DNA from: Candidatus Eiseniibacteriota bacterium
Lineage (GTDB): Bacteria; Eisenbacteria; RBG-16-71-46; DASYSL01
Length of the DNA: 64,000 nt
Assembly (NCBI GenBank): GCA_031431875.1
Contig: JANPEF010000061.1
Coordinates: forward strand, 32,001-96,000
Direction: 5' to 3'
The translations under genes and the position numbers were made by a program. Below, piece after piece: positions 4,015 to 20,301 of the stretch (position 1 is the stretch's first letter; every line of letters starts with the position of its first letter). The notes beneath the pieces are model-generated. The model saw only the letters and a program-made list of their open reading frames with translations. It ran no database searches and was not told where the DNA came from.

Positions 4015-7000
4015 ATGATGGCCACCCAGGCCCCCCGTCCCGGTCGCGGTTCGTTCGTCGGCTTTGTTCCGCTTCTGACGCTGCTCCTGTCCACGCCGGT
4101 CATCGCGGTTCCCGTCGGCACGGCGCCGCCCCTGGCCCTGCGCGATCGGACGCCGGGCCTGGTCGCGTTCACCGACGCGCGGCTCGTGATCGCCCCGGGC
4201 CGGACGGTCGAGAAGGGGACACTGGTCATCAAGGACGGCATGATCGTCGCCGCCGGTGCGGGGGTGAAGATCCCCGCCGGCGCAACCGTGCGCAGTCTCG
4301 CGTGGGCGACGATCTATCCCGGCTTCCTCGATGCCAGCGTGCCGGTCGGTTTCCCGTCGTCGGCGACCACCGGCCTGATTCGCGACGGCGCCGACGGTCC
4401 CTCGGGCGGGCCGGGCTCCGGCGGCCCGAGCGGCATTGCCGGGCCGGGCGCGTCGAGCTGGAACCCGCACGTCACGCCGGGCCGGCGCGTCGAGCTCGAC
4501 CTGCCGGCCGACAGCCTGGCCGCGAAGCTGCGCTCCACGCTGCGCAGCCAGGGCGTCACGGTGGCGCTGGTCGCCCCGGCGCGCGGCGTCGTCAGGGGGC
4601 AGGGCGCCCTGCTTACCACCGCCGACGGCCCGCTCGGGCGACTGGTGGTCAAGCCGCAGGCGAGCATGCACCTGGCGCTCAACTCGGGGCTCTCCTTCGA
4701 CGACCAGGGCTATCCGCAGTCGCCGATGGGCGCGGTCGCGCTGTTGCGCCAGACTTTCGCCGACGCCGCCTGGTACACCAGGGCGCAGGCGGCCTGCGCA
4801 CGCGACCCGAAGCTGCCGCGGCCCGAGACCGAGGAGGGCCTCGCCGCGCTCACCGCGTTCCGCACCACGCGCGCGCCATTCGTGATCGACGCCCAGGACG
4901 AGCTCTACGTGCTGCGCGCCGACCGTCTCGCCCGCGAGCTCGGATTCGACGCGATCGTGCGCGGCTCGGGTCGCGAGTACCGCCAGCTCGACGCGATCAG
5001 GGCGACGGGGCGCACGATCATCGTTCCGCTGTCGTTCCCGAAAGCGCCGATCGTCGACACGCCCGAGCAGGCGATGAACGTCTCGCTCGAGGACCTCATG
5101 CACTGGGACGTGGCCCCCGAGAACGCGGGCCGGCTGGCGAAGGCAGGCGTGCCGATTGCCTTGACCTCGGATCGGCTCGAGGATCGCGGCACGTTCCTGG
5201 TCCAGGTGCGGAAGGCCGTCGACCGCGGTCTCACGCCCGCGCAGGCGCTGGCCGCGCTGACCACCACGCCGGCGCGCGCGCTCGGGGTGGGTGATCGCCT
5301 GGGCACGCTCGAGGCCGGGAAGCAGGCGCACTTCGTCATCACCGACGGGGACCTGTTCGCCGCCACGACGAAGGTGCGCGAGGTGTGGATCGATGGCGAG
5401 GCCTACCCGATCAAGCCCTGGCCCGAGCTCGATCTGCGCGGGCGCTGGCTGGTGACGCTCGATCCGCCTGCAGCCGGAGCCGACTCGATCGTGCTCGCGC
5501 TCGCCGGGCAGCCCGATTCGCTGGGCGGCACGCTGCGGCTGGGCAAGGACACGATGCTCAAGTCCGCGCAGCTCCTCGAGCGACAGCTGTTCGTGTCGCT
5601 GTCCGGCGACTCGCTGGGAAAGCAGGGCGTCGTGCGCCTCTCCGGCGCGGTCGAGGGCGCAGGCGCCGAGCCGATCGTACGCGGCACGGGTGTGTGGCCC
5701 GACGGGGCGCCGTTTGCGTGGAGCGCCCGCCGCATCGCCGCCTACACGCCGCCGGCCGACACGGCGGCGAAACCGCCCCCCGTGCGCGCCAGCTACGAGC
5801 CGAACTTCCCGTTGGGCGACTGCGGTCGCAACGGCATTCCGGAGCGCCCGGCCGTCGTCGCGTTCGAAGGCGCGACCGTGTGGACGTCGGGTCCGGCCGG
5901 GAGGATCGAGGGCGCGACCGTGCTGGTCGAGAATGGGGTGATCCGCGCGGTCGGCAAGGACGTGCGCGTGCCGGCGAGCGCAGTCCGCATCGACGCGCGC
6001 GGCAAGCACATCACGCCGGGCCTGATCGACGCGCACTCGCACACCGCGACCGACGGTGGGATCAACGAGGGCGGGCAGAACGTCACCGCCGAGGTGCGCA
6101 TCGGCGACTTCATCGACCCGAACGACATCGCGCTCTACCGCGAGCTTGCCGGCGGCCTGACCGCGGCGCACATCCTGCACGGTTCGGCGAACGCAATCGG
6201 CGGGCAGAGCCAGATGATCAAGCTGCGCTGGGGAGCACCCGACTCGGCGCTCAAGTTCGCGGGCTGGCCGGCGACGATCAAGTTCGCGCTGGGCGAGAAT
6301 CCCAAGCAGTCCAACTGGGGCCTGCAGGACCCGACGCGCTATCCGCAGTCGCGCATGGGCGTCGAGCAGTTGATCCGCGACCGCTTCGCTGCGGCGCGGG
6401 ACTACACGGCCGAGCAGAAGCGCGGCACGATGGCGAACGGCCTGCCGGCGCGGCGCGATTACGAACTCGAGACGATCGCCCAGATTCTCGACGGCACGCG
6501 CACCATTCACAGCCACGCGTACCGCCAGGACGAGATCCTGATGCTCATGCGCGTGGCCGAGGAATACGGCATCCGGGTCGGCACGTTCCAGCACATCCTC
6601 GAGGGCTACAAGGTGGCCGACGTGATGGCCGCGCACGGGGCCGGCGGCTCGACGTTTTCCGACTGGTGGGCCTACAAGATGGAAGTCATCGATGCCATCC
6701 CGTTCAACGGCGCGCTGATGCATCGCGCCGGCGTGCTCGTGTCGTTCAACTCGGACTCGGACGAGCTGGCGCGTCGTCTCAACACCGAGGCGGGGAAGGC
6801 GGTCAAGTACGGCGGGGTCTCCCCGGAGGAAGCGCTCGAGTTCGTCACCGCAAACCCGGCGAAGCAGCTCAAGGTCGACGCGAAGGTCGGCTCACTCGAG
6901 CCCGGCAAGGATGCCGACCTCGTGGTGTGGAGCGGCCCGCCGTTGTCGCCGCTATCGCTCTGCGAGCAGACGTGGATCGACGGCCGGCGCTACTTCGACC

Positions 7001-14755: not shown

Positions 14756-15748
14756 CTAGGCAGCGCGGCGGGCGGGCGTCTCGACGCAGTTGCCGCCGTG
14801 CTGCCGCGCATCGCGCAGCACGCGCTCGGTCACCGCCCACAAGGTCTCGAGATCCACGCCGTCGCCCGGGAACGTGGCGACGCCGAACGTTGCCGACACG
14901 GCGCCCGCGGCGTGCGGTGCGAAGGCGTGGGTGGTGAGCGCGCTGCGCATGCGTGCGGCCACTTCGACCGCACCCTCGCGGCCGGTCTGCGGGAGCACGA
15001 CCGCCGTCAGGCCGCCCGTGCAGCGGCCGACCAGGTCGATGTCGCGCACGTGCGATCCCAGGAGTTCCGCGACGTCCGCCAGAGTGCCCGCCGGCCAGGA
15101 TTCGTCGCCGGCATCCGCCGCCGGATCGACCGCGACGAGGATCAGCGACAACTCCTGCCCGTGACGATGGGCTCGCCGGATCTCCTTCTTGAGCGCGGCG
15201 CGCAGTGTGCGCTCGCCCACGGCATCCCCGTCGTCGGCCCTGGGTACACGTGCGGCGAGGCGGCGGCGTTCGAGCGCGGCGCCGAGCCACGCGGCGAGGA
15301 GGAGCATCGACTGCATCTCGCCTGCGGTGAAGCGGGCGCGGCCGCGACGGCGATGGACGGCGAGGTACGAAGGCTCGTGATCGGCCCGCGCGATCGGCAC
15401 GAACAGCACGGGCCCGGCCTCGACGCCCGGGCAGCCGTCGCCCTCGGCATAGGCCGGTTGTTCGGACAGGTCGGCGAAGCTGATCGTCCGGGGTTCGGCC
15501 GCGAGGGCGCGCAGCGCCTCGCTGCCCTCCGGCGCGAGCGGCAGCACGGCCGGCAGGTCGCCGCCCGCGTGCAGAACCAGGCGCTCGGTCGGACGGCGCG
15601 ACGACACGAGGACGACCGCGGCCGCATCGGCGTCGACGAGGGCGCCCGCGGTGCGCAGGGCGCGCGCGAGCAACTGCCCGCGCGTTCCGGGTGACGCCGG
15701 GTTCTCGAGTGCGAGCAGCAGTTCGTGGATCCGGTCGGCCTGGGCCAT
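14756..15748 (-). CDS. GAF domain plus degenerate GGDEF domain protein
   Basis: AAGGAGG RBS. EIRRAHRHGQELSLIL, VRDIDLVGR and SATFGVATFP are GGDEF-fold segments, but GGDEF is replaced by TGGLT. Confidence 0.8.
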   Translation of the reverse strand: MAQADRIHELLLALENPASPGTRGQLLARALRTAGALVDADAAAVVLVSSRRPTERLVLHAGGDLPAVLPLAPEGSEALRALAAEPRTISFADLSEQPAYAEGDGCPGVEAGPVLFVPIARADHEPSYLAVHRRRGRARFTAGEMQSMLLLAAWLGAALERRRLAARVPRADDGDAVGERTLRAALKKEIRRAHRHGQELSLILVAVDPAADAGDESWPAGTLADVAELLGSHVRDIDLVGRCTGGLTAVVLPQTGREGAVEVAARMRSALTTHAFAPHAAGAVSATFGVATFPGDGVDLETLWAVTERVLRDARQHGGNCVETPARRAA

Positions 15749-15797
15749 TGCCCTTCCTCCTTGGCGACGCCGGACGGTCGGCGTCGAGGCAAGGAAG

Positions 15798-15813
15798 TGC
15801 AACCGCCATGCCA
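15798..15813 (-). promoter_or_regulatory. sigma54 (-24/-12) promoter for the GAF-GGDEF gene
   Basis: The minus strand reads TGGCATGGCGGTTGCA, matching TGGCAy-N5-TTGCA, 50 nt upstream of the ATG. Confidence 0.8.
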
Positions 15814-15949
15814 GCGAGGTCAGGTCGGGCACCGAACGCGCAGTGTGTTGTCCCGGTGTGCATTGCGCTTGTCGCTTGCGATGTCAGGTGAGCCTGGCGG
15901 CTTTGCCACCAGGACAGGTGGCGTCGATTTGGCCACCCGGGGTGGGCGA

Positions 15950-15978
15950 TTGACACCCGGTGCGGATGCTCCTATGCT
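15950..15978 (+). promoter_or_regulatory. sigma70-type promoter for the 16088 gene
   Basis: TTGACA-N17-TATGCT. Confidence 0.75.
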
Positions 15979-16087
15979 CCTTGGGCTCGCCGATTCGAGC
16001 CCCCCACGAGCATCGTTCGCAGCACCGGGACTTCGGCCCGGTCCCCTGCCCCAGCCAGCAAACTCACGGTTCCGTGGAGGCAGTCCC

Positions 16088-16798
16088 ATGAAGCGCTTGT
16101 CATTCCTGTCCGCGTTTGCCCTCTTGGCCGCGCCCGCCCTTGCCTTCGCCGCTCCGAATGCCGGCACCTACCAGACCACCGACCTCGGCGGCCAGCTCCT
16201 CACCGGGCGCGCCTCGTCGCACCGGACGGGGATCAACTCCGGCCTGCCGCATGTCCTGCACTCGCAGTCGTGGAACGGCTCGACGCTCGGCACGCAGTGG
16301 GAGTTGCGCTGCGCGGTCGAGAACGCCGCGTTCGGCATCCAGGACAACCGCGTCAACGGCACCGGCACCATCGTCTACAGCTCGACCTACACCGGCGGCC
16401 AGTTCGAGCTGTACAACACCGGCGGCGCCTGGGGTGACGGCGTGGCCGCGCTCGGAACGACGAGCATCATCTCGACCGTGCAGTTCGTGAACATCAACAA
16501 CGTCTCGACGCCGGTCGCGTCGGTCGTCAATGCCAACACCTCGGGTGACTTCGGCGGCGGCTGCGTCCTCACCTTCGCGATCGCGAATGGCGTCGGCGTG
16601 GGCGAGACGACGAGCCTCGACGTTTCGATCCAGAAGCCGGCCGACTACCCGACGTTCCTCGCCGCCAACTGCGGCCTCGCCTTGCCCAACGAGCAGTTCG
16701 GCACGTGGGGCACCATGATCACCGGGACGCTGCGCATCGATTGCTCGGTCGACGCAACGACTTCGACCTGGGGCGCGGTGAAGAACATCTATCGCTGA
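16088..16798 (+). CDS. Secreted hypothetical protein with C-terminal TWGAVKNIYR tail
   Basis: GGAGG RBS, Sec signal peptide (MKRLSFLSAFALLAAPALAFA) and a Gly/Thr/Asn-rich, beta-type sequence with 4 Cys. Confidence 0.85.
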   Translation: MKRLSFLSAFALLAAPALAFAAPNAGTYQTTDLGGQLLTGRASSHRTGINSGLPHVLHSQSWNGSTLGTQWELRCAVENAAFGIQDNRVNGTGTIVYSSTYTGGQFELYNTGGAWGDGVAALGTTSIISTVQFVNINNVSTPVASVVNANTSGDFGGGCVLTFAIANGVGVGETTSLDVSIQKPADYPTFLAANCGLALPNEQFGTWGTMITGTLRIDCSVDATTSTWGAVKNIYR

Positions 16799-16831
16799 TA
16801 TGGCATGACCTCTTGTCAAGCTGGTCCACAC

Positions 16832-16865
16832 GCGACCACCGCTCCGGCGGTGGTCGCTGTGTTTT
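16832..16865 (+). terminator. Hairpin with T-rich tail inside the IS end
   Basis: GCGACCACCGC-TCCG-GCGGTGGTCGC (11-bp stem) followed by TGTGTTTT. Confidence 0.55.
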
Positions 16866-16879
16866 GGGGAGATGAGCTT

Positions 16880-17090
16880 CTGGAAGGACGGACGCGGAAG
16901 TCGCCGACGGCGTGTCACTCTGATATCCGCGGGTTGCCTCGAAGGATCGGGGCCGAGCCGCATGACCGTAGTTCGTCGGGAGGTACCGCAGTCTAGCATC
17001 GTGAGTCGGTGGCTCCGGTGAACCGGAGTCCCGTCGCGTAGCGATATCGCGGGTTATCTCACGCATCATCCCCTCGTCCGTCCATCCTGA
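16880..17090 (-). ncRNA. Candidate bridge/seek RNA in the 3' non-coding end of the IS110 element
   Basis: About 290 nt of non-coding sequence downstream of the transposase has two stem-internal-loop modules whose loop segments match the target and donor junction sequences. Boundaries are approximate. Confidence 0.65.
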
Positions 17091-17093
17091 AGC

Positions 17094-18215
17094 TCAGCCT
17101 TGGGCCTTCGCGGCTTCCGGCCGGGCCAGTGCGGCCCAGAGGAAGCCGGCGAGCTCGCGAGCAATCGCGATGACGATCTTGTTGCGGTGCTTGCCTCGAG
17201 CCTCCATCTGCCGGAATCGACGACAGAGCCGCTTCTGGGCCCGATCGGCCAGGGCAATCATGGCCGGCGGCTGGCCAAGCCGCCGGTTCGCCAGGTCCTT
17301 GCTGACCCGAGCCTTGTGGCGGTAGTTCCAGGAGCCTTCGATCAGAGTGCGGCGCACGTGCTGGTTGCCGGCGCGCGTGATCCCGCCGCGGCGATGATGA
17401 TCTCCACTGCTGGCTTCCGAGGGCACGAGCCCGAGAAAGGCCATGAGCGAAGGAGCAGACGGAAACCTCCGAACGTCATGAAGCTCCGACAGCAAGATCA
17501 TGGCGTTCACCGTGTCGATCCCGCGAAAGCAGCGGAGCCAACCGACTCGTTCGCGCCACGGCTCTCCCTGGGAGATCGCCAGGAGCTCGACATCGAGCGC
17601 GGAGCGCTGGGCCTCACGCTGCTCGACCGTGAGCAGGTAGTCCTCGAAGACGATCCGCTCGGAAGGGCGTTCGAACACCAGGCTCGTGAGCCAGGTCCGA
17701 TGGGCCTGAGACCACGAGTGTGCTTGCCCCGTGCCGAAGACCAGCCCGTGCCGCAACAGGAAGTGCGTGAGGCGGTGACGCGCCCGCGTGAGATCGACGC
17801 GCGCATCGTCGCGGCAGCGGCACAGATCCCGTACCGCCTCCTCGTCAACGCTCGGAGGATGGACTTCGGTCAGAAGCCCTGCGCGAAACAGCTCGGCCAG
17901 CTTGCGCGCATCCCTGCGATCGGTCTTGATGCGATCGCCCGGCCGAAGCGGCGTCAGGGACGGCGCGATCACCGTGCACTCGCAGCCCTGAGCGATCAGA
18001 TCACGCTGAAGCACGTAACCGCAGGGTCCTGCTTCGTAACAGCAACGAACCGGTCCCTGCGCCTGGGCCTTGATGCGCTGGACCAACTTGCGGACTTGGG
18101 CCGCCTGGTTCGCGATCTGCCCATTCCACGGCTCCCGATCCTGGGGCTTGAGTACGCAAAACGAGATCGTGTTGCGATGGACATCCAGACCGACGATGGT
18201 GCTAGGCTCTTGCAC
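17094..18215 (-). CDS. IS110 family transposase/recombinase
   Basis: GLDVH (D), CYEAGPCG (E), KTDRRDA (DD) and GLVPSEASSG (catalytic Ser region). GTG start with an AGGGAG RBS. Confidence 0.96.
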   Translation of the reverse strand: MQEPSTIVGLDVHRNTISFCVLKPQDREPWNGQIANQAAQVRKLVQRIKAQAQGPVRCCYEAGPCGYVLQRDLIAQGCECTVIAPSLTPLRPGDRIKTDRRDARKLAELFRAGLLTEVHPPSVDEEAVRDLCRCRDDARVDLTRARHRLTHFLLRHGLVFGTGQAHSWSQAHRTWLTSLVFERPSERIVFEDYLLTVEQREAQRSALDVELLAISQGEPWRERVGWLRCFRGIDTVNAMILLSELHDVRRFPSAPSLMAFLGLVPSEASSGDHHRRGGITRAGNQHVRRTLIEGSWNYRHKARVSKDLANRRLGQPPAMIALADRAQKRLCRRFRQMEARGKHRNKIVIAIARELAGFLWAALARPEAAKAQG

Positions 18216-18363
18216 GGCCGGCTCCCTTCGTATGCGGCTCTGCTGCTTCAAGCAGCAAACCGCGTCAGAGTGGATCAAACCACCCGGTCGTTCCCGGGGT
18301 TCCTGGTTGGGAACGACGGTACGAACCGGGGGCCGGTCATGCCATAGGGTCTAGAGTCGGGGC

Positions 18364-19083
18364 CTAGTCCGGCAGCGTCGAGACCTTGAACGGCGTCGGC
18401 GGAGACGAGGTGACGACCTTGCCGCCTTCGTCCCGGGCGTCCACGCGGACGAGCAGCGCCTGTCCCGCAACCGGACGGAAGTCGAGTTCGGAGGCCGGCA
18501 CGTCGAGCGCCGAGTCGCCGCGCACGCTCCGGTATGCCAGCTCTTCGAGGCGGTCCGAGTAGACGCGCACCTCGTAGGTGTCGGCGCCCGGAACCGCGTT
18601 CCACGAGACGTGCAATCCGTCGACATCGAGCCCGGCCGAGCGGACGCGCAGCATCGGCGCATTCGCATCGCTCGATCCGCCGCGCAGGACCTGCGATGGA
18701 TCGTGCTCCGCATGGCGCGGCCACAGAACGACCCCGCCCACCACGATTGCCGCCACCACGAGCCCCAGCGCGGGCCGCAGTGCCGGCGCGAACAGCGCGG
18801 CCCACCACGAGGTGCGCGGCGTCGCGCGTAACGGCGCGTGGGGTGCAGGGTCGGGTTCGGAAGGCGCGCCGATCGTCCGCGCCAGGAACGCCGACAGCCG
18901 GGCGTCCGCCGCCGCGACGTCCGGCAGCGCGGCGTCGGCGCCGGGATCCATGAACCGGGCGTAGGCATCGAGCAGCGCGCCGCAGCGCGGGCACTGCGCG
19001 ACGTGGGCGCGGCGCGGATCCGTCGCCGGCAGCTCGGCGACCGTGGCCAGTTCCTCGACCGGCATGCAGGGCGTGACGGTCAC
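18364..19083 (-). CDS. Zinc-binding (ZAS) transmembrane anti-sigma factor
   Basis: HVAQCPRC (HxxxCxxC), one TM helix and a periplasmic Ig/FN3-like C-terminus. GTGA overlap with the sigma gene. Confidence 0.8.
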   Translation of the reverse strand: MTVTPCMPVEELATVAELPATDPRRAHVAQCPRCGALLDAYARFMDPGADAALPDVAAADARLSAFLARTIGAPSEPDPAPHAPLRATPRTSWWAALFAPALRPALGLVVAAIVVGGVVLWPRHAEHDPSQVLRGGSSDANAPMLRVRSAGLDVDGLHVSWNAVPGADTYEVRVYSDRLEELAYRSVRGDSALDVPASELDFRPVAGQALLVRVDARDEGGKVVTSSPPTPFKVSTLPD

Positions 19084-19661
19084 GGCGTTCTCCCTGCGAG
19101 CGCGGTGCGGAGCTTGCGCCGGGCGCGCTGCAGGAGTGCGCGTGCCCCGGTCGCATTGTCGAGCCTCATCACGACCGTGATCTCCTCGACGGGCAGTCGC
19201 TCGAAGCAGCGCAGCCACAGCGCTTCCCGTTCCTCGGGATCGAGAGTGTCGGCAAGCAGCTGGCGCAACGCTATCTCATCCTGCAGCTCCCCCAGCATCC
19301 GTTCCGGGGTGCCGTCCGTCGCCGGCAGCGTCTCGAGCTCGACGTCGTCGTCGCGCAGCAGGCCCGGCGCCGCGAGTTCGTTCAGGCAACGATTGCGCGC
19401 GATCGCGAAAAGCCACGAGCCGAAGAGCGCCCGGCCCTGGAACGAGCCCAGGGCGCGCCACGCCCGCAGCAGCACCTCCTGCGCCAGTTCGAGCGCTCGT
19501 TCCGGATCCCGCACGTAGCGGTGACACCACACGTACACCCGACGCTGGTAGCGCCCGAGCAACGCCGAAGCCGCGGCCCGCCCGCCCGCCCCGTCGGGAT
19601 CGGCGGCGTGGCGGGCGAGGAACTCGTCGTCGGTCGGCTCGGGGCGCGGGGCCTCGCTCAT
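19080..19661 (-). CDS. ECF-family RNA polymerase sigma factor
   Basis: Region 2 (ELAQEVLLRAW...FGSWLFAIARNRCLN) and region 4 (EREALWLRCFERL...LQRARRKLR). Confidence 0.92.
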   Translation of the reverse strand: MSEAPRPEPTDDEFLARHAADPDGAGGRAAASALLGRYQRRVYVWCHRYVRDPERALELAQEVLLRAWRALGSFQGRALFGSWLFAIARNRCLNELAAPGLLRDDDVELETLPATDGTPERMLGELQDEIALRQLLADTLDPEEREALWLRCFERLPVEEITVVMRLDNATGARALLQRARRKLRTALAGRTP

Positions 19662-19851
19662 CGGATAGGAACGGCTCCAGGGCCGGAAATCACAGGCGGC
19701 GGGCCGGGACGGGGCAGGCGACCGGTAGCGGACAGCGTAAGCCGTGGCGCCGCAAACGGGAAGGGGCCCGTCCGGTTTCGCTTGTCGCGCCCGAAAGCGC
19801 CCCGTACCGTGCGGGTCGCGCGGCGCATCGTGCCGCCGCAGGGAGGACGCC

Positions 19852-20301
19852 GTGACCAATTCCGTGAACTGGATGCTCATCATCGTCGGGGCGCTCGCGC
19901 TCGTCGCCGAGGTCGTCCTCGGCGTCATCACCGGTTTCGACCTCGCGATCGTCGGCCTGGCGCTCATGGTCGGCGGCGGAATCGGGCTCGCCTTCGGGTC
20001 GGCCGAGGTCGGCCTGTTCGCCGCCGGCGCGTTCGCGTTCCTCTACCTCGCGTTCTTCCGCCGGCAGGTCAAGGCGCGGCTGGCCGCCGGGCCCGCCCGG
20101 CCGACGAACATCGACGTGGTGCTGGGCAAGAGCGGAATGGTGACCGAGCGGATCGGGCCGCATGCGCCGGGAATGGTACGGGTCGGCGACGAACTGTGGC
20201 GCGCGGCGCTGCTGGACGAGGGCGCGGGCGCGATGGCGAAGGAACCCGGAACGACGGTGCTGGTGGACTCGGTCGAGGGCGTAACCCTTAAGGTGAGGTG
20301 A
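19852..20301 (+). CDS. NfeD-like membrane protein (short form)
   Basis: Hydrophobic N-terminus plus OB-fold (GMVRVGDELWRA...VEGVTLKV). GGAGG RBS; directly upstream of the SPFH gene. Confidence 0.88.
   Translation: MTNSVNWMLIIVGALALVAEVVLGVITGFDLAIVGLALMVGGGIGLAFGSAEVGLFAAGAFAFLYLAFFRRQVKARLAAGPARPTNIDVVLGKSGMVTERIGPHAPGMVRVGDELWRAALLDEGAGAMAKEPGTTVLVDSVEGVTLKVR

Follow-up and report, generated by a model that had tools for sequence, protein, structure and literature searches.

How does an insertion sequence come to sit exactly on the stop codon of a protein gene and leave the encoded protein unchanged? The question is raised by positions 16790-18364 of a 64,000-nucleotide (nt) stretch of a Candidatus Eiseniibacteriota genome (the window hereafter), where an element of the IS110 family directly follows a host gene. 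The answer proposed here is that the element, a member of the IS1111 group, very probably encodes a bridge (or seek) RNA on the strand of its gene, downstream of a DEDD recombinase, and that this RNA reads both the target and the element's own ends. A naturally programmed RNA located downstream of the recombinase had already been suggested in a first-pass annotation of the window, and the covariation of guides and flanks among related elements bears this suggestion out. The arrangement itself, which the annotation took to be new, is a published trait of the family, since guide RNAs downstream of IS1111 recombinases have been described before, and no new mechanism is involved.

The element is an insertion sequence of 1556 base pairs (bp) on the minus strand (16797-18352) and belongs to the IS1111 group of the IS110 family, as the annotation had recognised. 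Its limits are given by the junctions of copies in its own genome, by related elements and by one more junction found in the public sequencing run X2. A single long open reading frame (ORF) is present within 16790-18364, on the minus strand, and encodes the transposase (17094-18218; 374 amino acids), with a GTG start at 18218 preceded by GAAGGGAG and a stop codon at 17094-17096. The protein matches the Pfam families PF01548 DEDD_Tnp_IS110 (8e-20) and PF02371 Transposase_20 (4.7e-19), as well as the NCBIfam model NF033542, "IS110 family RNA-guided transposase", at 236.7 bits for a cut-off of 140. Its motifs GLDV, YEAG, KTDRRDA and GLVPSEASSG include those of the DEDD and Ser-Gly signatures, and the solved transposases of ISCro4 and IS621 align weakly with it (E = 2.8e-6 for IS621), with the Asp/Glu and Ser-Gly motifs in register. 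Both the N-terminal DEDD RuvC-like domain and the C-terminal Tnp domain with a conserved Ser that characterise the IS110 family are present. The ends of the element, read from the sequence, carry a perfect pair of 12-bp subterminal inverted repeats, TATGGCATGACC at the right end (16799-16810; with the same layout in the relatives) and GGTCATGCCATA at the left end (18335-18346). The right repeat is inset by 2 nt, the terminal bases GA (16797-16798; TC in the transposase orientation), and the left one by 4 nt, the extension GGGT (18347-18350; ACCC in the transposase orientation) that lies 3' of the repeat. About 295 nt of non-coding DNA follow the transposase gene (17093-16797), versus 134 nt that precede it (18352-18219). 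Subterminal inverted repeats, in the range of 7-17 bp, and a long non-coding region after the gene are hallmarks of the IS1111 group in the published descriptions (PMC11187229; PMC11208160), and it is this agreement that places the element in the group.

The precise point of insertion can be read from other copies. A DNA search of the element's own genome returned the full copy and five fragments at contig ends, and exact-motif searches then located four right-end junctions (contigs C18, C59, C60 and C61) and three left-end ones (C46, C61 and C104). The four right-end junctions all read TAYCGC-TGA-TATGGC..., and each falls exactly on the stop codon of an ORF, which ends in WGxVKxxYR in three cases and in ...STYR in one. 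The left-end junctions of the three copies read GGGT-CT-AG, followed by AGTCGG, AGCGGC or TTTCGG. Among related elements, the dinucleotide at the left-end junction, located without requiring AG, is AG in the transposase orientation in 39 of 41, whereas at the right-end junction of 69 relatives it is AG in 55, AC in 7, AA in 5, AT in 1 and GG in 1. The shared core is thus CT on the plus strand of the window (AG in the transposase orientation), which fits all the junctions, with copies at 16795-16796 and 18351-18352, the second being counted with the element. An ortholog of the host gene from the same genus, which is no strict empty site, also ends in TAC CGC TAG, in line with a CT core. The empty site predicted by this core, TATCGCTAGAGTCGG, would read TATCG-CT-AGAGTCGG, that is, a gene end of the form Tyr-Arg-TAG. 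With this core, two convergent stop codons lie 9 nt apart in the empty site, instead of the 8 bp between convergent genes given in the annotation. Upon insertion the stop TAG becomes TGA, so that the host protein remains unchanged.

Most of the evidence for a guide RNA comes from the comparison of relatives. Nine relatives came from genomes, among them seven whose proteins are 55-58% identical to that of the window and an eighth with 44% identity; a locus search with a single protein yielded only two loci, and a DNA pattern scan of metagenomes, with a pattern built on the conserved donor module described below, was much more productive, giving at least 80 loci. The counts reported for the family are among the matches listed. 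The alignment (A1) includes 72 RNAs with their flanks and has a consensus of seven helices; it leaves out the loci L063, L072, L073, L078 and L100, with a broken target module, and those loci without 110 nt upstream.

The predicted bridge/seek RNA covers about 220 nt of the minus strand (16875-17098), according to its own fold and to the consensus structure in the relatives. A long outer stem (17098-17075 with 16905-16878) begins at the transposase stop codon. The target-binding module (16986-17052) is an internal loop enclosed by stems P2 (17052-17049 with 16989-16986) and P3 (17038-17034 with 17004-17000), both of which change on both sides among the relatives (helices 1 and 2), whereas the donor-binding module (16905-16978) is formed by stems P5-P8 and an 11-nt 3' bulge, GAUAUCAGAGU. 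Two loop modules had been described for this region by the annotation, and compensatory changes among the 72 relatives support them; the strings that it had placed at 17040-17046, 16991-17001, 16962-16969 and 16920-16926 are all present in the sequence, although they did not fare equally as guides. The 3' region folds better than shuffled sequences on the minus strand (z = -4.25) and likewise on the plus strand, so that the fold of a single sequence cannot decide the strand. The alignment is more telling. It has 95.0% of its cells paired, a level that falls to 84.7% when the columns are shuffled and to 28-47% for the slid controls, and cells with changes on both sides number 194 versus 62.5 in the shuffles, none of which (0 of 500) attained that value. 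Independent support for the stems comes from helices 1-3 of the target module and from the hairpin of helix 7. Moreover, 265 G:U cells versus 33 A/C cells, in a consensus itself predicted on the transposase-sense strand, indicate that the structure belongs to this strand.

In the window, the 5' strand of the target loop reads GAUAUCGCUA and its 3' strand AUGCUAGACU. The first target guide, UAUCGCUA (17039-17046, minus strand), lies on the 5' strand; it is identical to the plus-strand TATCGCTA of the predicted empty site and would pair with the minus strand. Among 60 non-identical pairs of guide and flank, a count that omits four elements in which the parse of the right end was at odds with the donor guide, the reverse complement of the guide agrees with the core and right flank in 52, 51, 48, 50, 48, 39 and 35 cases at positions 1 to 7, whereas positions 8 and 9 agree at chance level (15/60 and 16/60). 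None of 2000 shuffles of the flanks reached the observed value, and the same holds when one element per distinct guide is kept (n=49). The string TATCGCT, regarded as a guide in the annotation, therefore stands as part of UAUCGCU(A), with complementarity over seven positions. The second target guide, CUAG followed by AC (16991-16996, minus strand), is found on the 3' strand of the loop and matches the left flank of the relatives in 39/39 at position -1, 36/39 at -2, 19/39 at -3, 9/39 at -4 and 6/39 at -5, again a value reached by none of 2000 shuffles. Within CUAG (16996-16993) the CU matches the left flank and the AG the core, whereas the AC that follows agrees, in 24 of 39 relatives, with the two bases at which the left end of the element begins. 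A longer string, CGATGCTAGAC (16991-17001), had been marked at this place; its CUAGAC does lie in the loop and holds the guide CUAG(AC), whereas its CGA is part of a stem.

An unbiased mutual-information scan of all RNA columns against all junction positions recovered the same antiparallel diagonals, and the RNA column 52, the base after the CU of the guide, was complementary to position -1 of the left flank in 88% of 33 elements. Jointly, UAUCGCUA and CUAG specify the 9-mer TATCGCTAG. The loop segments are thus complementary to both strands of the target and covary with it, and UAUCGCUA (17046-17039) lies 5' of CUAG (16996-16993) on the RNA, as in the IS1111 group. A comparison of homologs of this kind had been proposed together with the annotation, and its outcome is that loop segments covary with their flanking targets; the annotated orientation of the guides, opposite to that of the transposase, also holds, since it is on the strand opposite the gene that the target appears as TATCG-CT-AG and the order of the segments is the published IS1111 one. 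As judged by sequence comparison, UAUCGCUA and CUAG are real target guides, and two metagenome relatives, L116 and L060, have the same guide as the window element.

The donor module offers a similar picture for one end of the element and a less clear one for the other. The segment AUAUCAG (16920-16926, minus strand) equals the right end ATATC plus the core AG. Among the relatives, the corresponding motif AUAxxAG equals the element's own right end and core in 69 of 73, the variable dinucleotide of the matching ones being TC in 51, GC in 10, CT in 6, TG in 1 and CC in 1, and its identity to the right end was 1.00 in the unbiased scan. The covariation thus identifies AUAUCAG as a real donor guide, in agreement with the annotation. 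A candidate second donor guide, GGUC (16964-16967, minus strand), is complementary to G-ACC, formed by the core G and the left-end extension, and in 85% of 33 elements its sole variable base (alignment column 131) is the complement of the base found at the third position of this extension. The GUC of this segment is also predicted to pair inside the RNA. GGUC is probably the second donor guide; accordingly, only the inner part of the string ACGGTCAT (16962-16969), which had been annotated as a partial donor match, is retained, with one clade in conflict. The second module is therefore complementary to the element's own joined ends, with partial support for the left-end guide. As for the two bases after AUAxxAG, no handshake-type relation with the right flank was seen in a table read by eye and left uncounted. 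For this structural class the guide lengths would be 8 nt and then 4 (+2) nt for the target, and 7 nt and then about 4 nt for the donor; derived from an alignment of 72 RNAs, they could aid the reprogramming of IS1111-type recombinases. A further candidate was discarded: an 8-nt identity in the window had made GGUCAUGC look like a copy of the inverted repeat, but it is no guide, because the relatives keep GGUCAUGCGG constant although their repeats differ.

The most direct challenge to this scheme comes from the annotation itself, which placed the crossover at GA, with the empty site TATCGCT-GA-GTCGG (TATCGCTGAGTCGG) and with CCGACUCA as an 8-nt guide spanning it. GA is indeed present at both junctions of the window copy, CCGACTCA (17002-17009, minus strand) would then be an exact match, and a 90% variant copy at C104 likewise carries GA after TCTA. 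For the core to be GA, all copies would have to carry TCTAGA; this core was rejected because two junctions, that of the C46 copy and that of run X2, diverge right after ...GGGTCTAG, hence after TCTAG and without GA. The relatives, moreover, have AG in the transposase orientation at both junctions; the donor guide AUAxxAG continues through its variable bases into AG, which fits a CT/AG core only; and the base complementary to RNA column 52 is precisely the one preceding AG in those 88% of 33 relatives. The CCGAC of the supposed spanning guide lies in a conserved segment, and matches at positions -4 and -5 of the left flank are at chance. As for CCGACTCA, it falls within a family-conserved GGACUCGCG segment, made up of a bulge and the 3' strand of stem P3; its mean longest match to the left flank was 3.85, compared with 3.74 after shuffling, and 218 of 1000 shuffles gave values as high (33 elements). 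Its match falls with the wrong empty site on which it depended, and a crossover at GA is very improbable. A different objection is that the 3' structure might be a DNA or protein-binding site, with the matches reflecting the pairing of single-stranded DNA, as in IS200/IS605. Covariation alone cannot separate RNA from single-stranded DNA of the same strand, and the public sequencing runs listed as carrying the element include no RNA run. The 265 G:U-type pairs, however, suit RNA much better than DNA, and the homologous region of four IS1111 elements gives an RNA that copurifies with the transposase and is required for transposition, as reported in PMC11187229, which leaves a DNA or protein site with very little credit.

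The element could also be one in decay, which has kept its guide strings and whose RNA is no longer functional. Stem P3 of the window copy has one C-A mismatch, the stretch upstream of its target module deviates from the family consensus GGCACGAUCCGGAG, and decayed end fragments are found at other gene ends of the same genome. Against this stand an open transposase frame with its catalytic motifs retained, at least four right-end junctions that share 99-100% identity across about 140 nt, the guide in common with L116 and L060, and a depth of 67 for the element contig of run X2 versus 12-17 for its flanks, a weak hint of several copies. On balance, decay is unlikely. The mismatch, the deviating stretch and the RNA-free list of sequencing runs nevertheless count against a working bridge RNA in the window, and so do several other observations. 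Three of the four occupied sites in the genome read TACCGC, which requires a G:U wobble with the guide. The contigs of four DNA runs contained neither an empty site of this locus nor a circle junction, and an ortholog of the host gene from the same genus (85% identical over 397 nt), which ends in TAC CGC TAG, is no strict empty site because its downstream neighbour differs. A scan of 16000-19000 with Rfam 15 (E <= 1) found no bridge-RNA family, with a chance match to a small RNA elsewhere. GGUC is only 4 nt long, and the ACAG clade carries A where U would be expected. Finally, the search pattern partly fixed helices 4-6, which never vary, and the flanks of the AUAxxAG motif, so that only the hairpin of helix 7 gives independent covariation in the donor module, and the shuffle tests overstate significance because the relatives share ancestry.

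With the guide RNA as the preferred reading, recombination would follow a simple path. One internal loop of the target module would read the target on both strands, UAUCGCUA pairing with the minus strand of TATCGCTA and CUAG with the plus strand of CTAG. The donor module would read the joined ends of the element, through AUAUCAG for the right end and the core and, probably, through GGUC for the core and the left end. Recombination at the shared core would then place the element between the CGC-T and the AG of a Tyr-Arg-TAG gene end, where its first bases would rebuild the stop codon as TGA. Production of the RNA, its binding by the recombinase and strand exchange via a circular intermediate would proceed as in the published relatives. 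A TTGACA hexamer near the right end (16814-16819, minus strand) points outwards and is a candidate -35 box of a junction promoter; it is kept in 9/9 cases (the window and all 8 genome relatives with the right end recovered), whereas across the inferred circle junction no matching -10 box was seen and a sigma-70 promoter scan gave 0 sites. In one relative, L014 (1497-1530), the right end CCATACT, AG and the left end ACAGTA follow one another, like joined ends, before a truncated transposase gene; in this rearranged context, the string may be left over from a tandem or circular form.

All these features fit what has been published on the family. RNAs from the 3' non-coding region that co-purify with the transposase and on which transposition depends, the seekRNAs, have been described for ISEc11, ISPa11, ISKpn4 and ISPst6 (Siddiquee et al. 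2024, PMC11187229), and for 93.0% of the IS1111 elements in ISfinder a bridge RNA has been predicted in the right end (Durrant et al. 2024, PMC11208160). The window element resembles those four in its DEDD transposase with a GL-P----SG motif and in its subterminal inverted repeats (PMC11187229). It also shares with the seekRNA elements, as they are described there, a long downstream non-coding region and one specific target per element (PMC11187229). In the IS1111 seekRNAs the match to the top strand lies 5' of the match to the bottom strand, the reverse of the IS110 order (PMC11187229), and here, too, a segment complementary to the top strand precedes one complementary to the bottom strand, both overlapping at the insertion point. 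The differences are a protein of 374 amino acids, versus the 330-350 quoted for the family (PMC11187229), and a target that is the end of a protein gene (Tyr-Arg-stop) instead of the REP, attC or transposon ends given for the named elements; moreover, the present element is known from sequence alone. ISCARN28, ISAzs32 and ISPa11, compared by their description, are similar in having predicted right-end bridge RNAs whose loops are complementary to target or donor over 8-14 nt (Durrant et al. 2024, PMC11208160).

The comparison with IS621 is informative about orientation. Both RNAs have target and donor modules that each read both strands around a shared core (PMC11208160; PMC11208158), and in both cases the core is CT when read on the strand opposite the transposase (PMC11208160). 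On that strand, the 5' strand of the IS621 loop equals the left target and the core, and its 3' strand pairs with the core and the right target (PMC11208160); read in the same way, the site described here has the left target TATCG, the core CT and the right target AG, and the two strands of its target loop stand in these same relations to them. The AC after CUAG resembles the handshake guides (Hiraizumi et al. 2024, PMC11208158). In contrast to IS621, the RNA comes after the gene and not before it, so that the arrangement of gene and RNA about the core is inverted. In addition, the inverted repeats measure 12 bp versus 2-3 bp in the descriptions of IS621, the donor module has the form of a 1 x 11 bulge instead of the symmetric internal loop described there and shows no handshake signal, and the similarity between the proteins is weak (E = 2.8e-6). 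The core itself may differ as well. At the right-end junction, the base after the invariant core A is C, A or T, and not G, in 13 of 69 elements (L012, L046, L070, L074, L080, L085, L094 and L113, among others). A non-G base is predicted by the target guide in 17 elements, and the right-end junction follows the guide in 10 of these 17. The target would dictate the base adjoining the invariant core base at one junction, and the donor would do so at the other; the effective shared core may be a single base in this clade, unlike the CT dinucleotide of IS621.

The host gene of the window (16088-16798, plus strand; its start is approximate, having been assigned by eye to the methionine of MKRLSF in the 15725-16798 ORF) ends in ...TWGAVKNIYR, and its stop codon TGA (16796-16798) is made of the core T and the GA of the element. 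The protein (end at 16770-16798) had no Pfam or NCBIfam match. In the same genome, 37 ORFs end in the form W[GSA]x[IVLM]Kxx[YF]R-stop, in most cases with P-A-x-x-x-[ST] ahead of it, and five of them still carry TAYCGCTAG; this ending has the appearance of a C-terminal signal for secreted proteins, one not described so far. Seven members of the element family are located at [YF]R-stop ends. The guide follows the third base of the Arg codon in the six that are readable, with the codons CGC, CGA, CGT and CGG corresponding to the guide bases GCU, GAU, GUU and GGU; in the seventh, L100, the broken target module leaves the guide unreadable. It is conceivable, and is put forward only tentatively, that this sub-clade is specialised on W-G-x-V/I-K-x-x-Y-R-stop gene ends, with the change from TAG to TGA and a terminator making insertion costless, and with an effective core of a single base. 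In any case, the element offers a clean natural example, from an uncultured lineage, where every guide segment of an IS1111-type bridge RNA can be compared with several insertion sites, and insertion at a stop codon that is rebuilt is a neat safe-harbour strategy.

The terminator in question would be a strong terminator-like hairpin with a run of T (16832-16867, plus strand) located in the right end of the element, which reads inwards, 35 nt past the rebuilt host stop. The relatives, too, have a hairpin at this position of their right end, although its sequence differs. The hairpin may terminate transcription of the host gene or protect the bridge RNA against antisense read-in.

Traces of older events are also present in this and in a related genome. 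Two genes ending in YR-stop are followed by decayed pieces of right end, TGATATGGCATGAC..GTCAAG in contig C67 (minus strand, ~20009) and TGATATGGC alone in C2 (minus strand, ~21812), which, by their sequence, were left by insertions of an earlier date. Another species of the genus, G002, carries a 40-bp remnant at the same stop codon of the ortholog (L024 / L166; contig C41, ~6117-6160), with the layout TGA, two inverted repeats 3 nt apart, and then GGGTTCTAG. The transposase query of the element found no transposase in G002. The remnant could be either an old insertion that has lost its interior or a miniature derivative; a multi-copy miniature element was discarded, the two-repeat remnant occurring once in that genome.

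On the other side of the element, the convergent neighbour ORF (18364-19218, minus strand), with no Pfam match, overlaps the end of the ORF 19080-19967. The latter looks, from its sequence, like an extracytoplasmic function (ECF) sigma factor, and both ORFs may form an anti-sigma/sigma pair.

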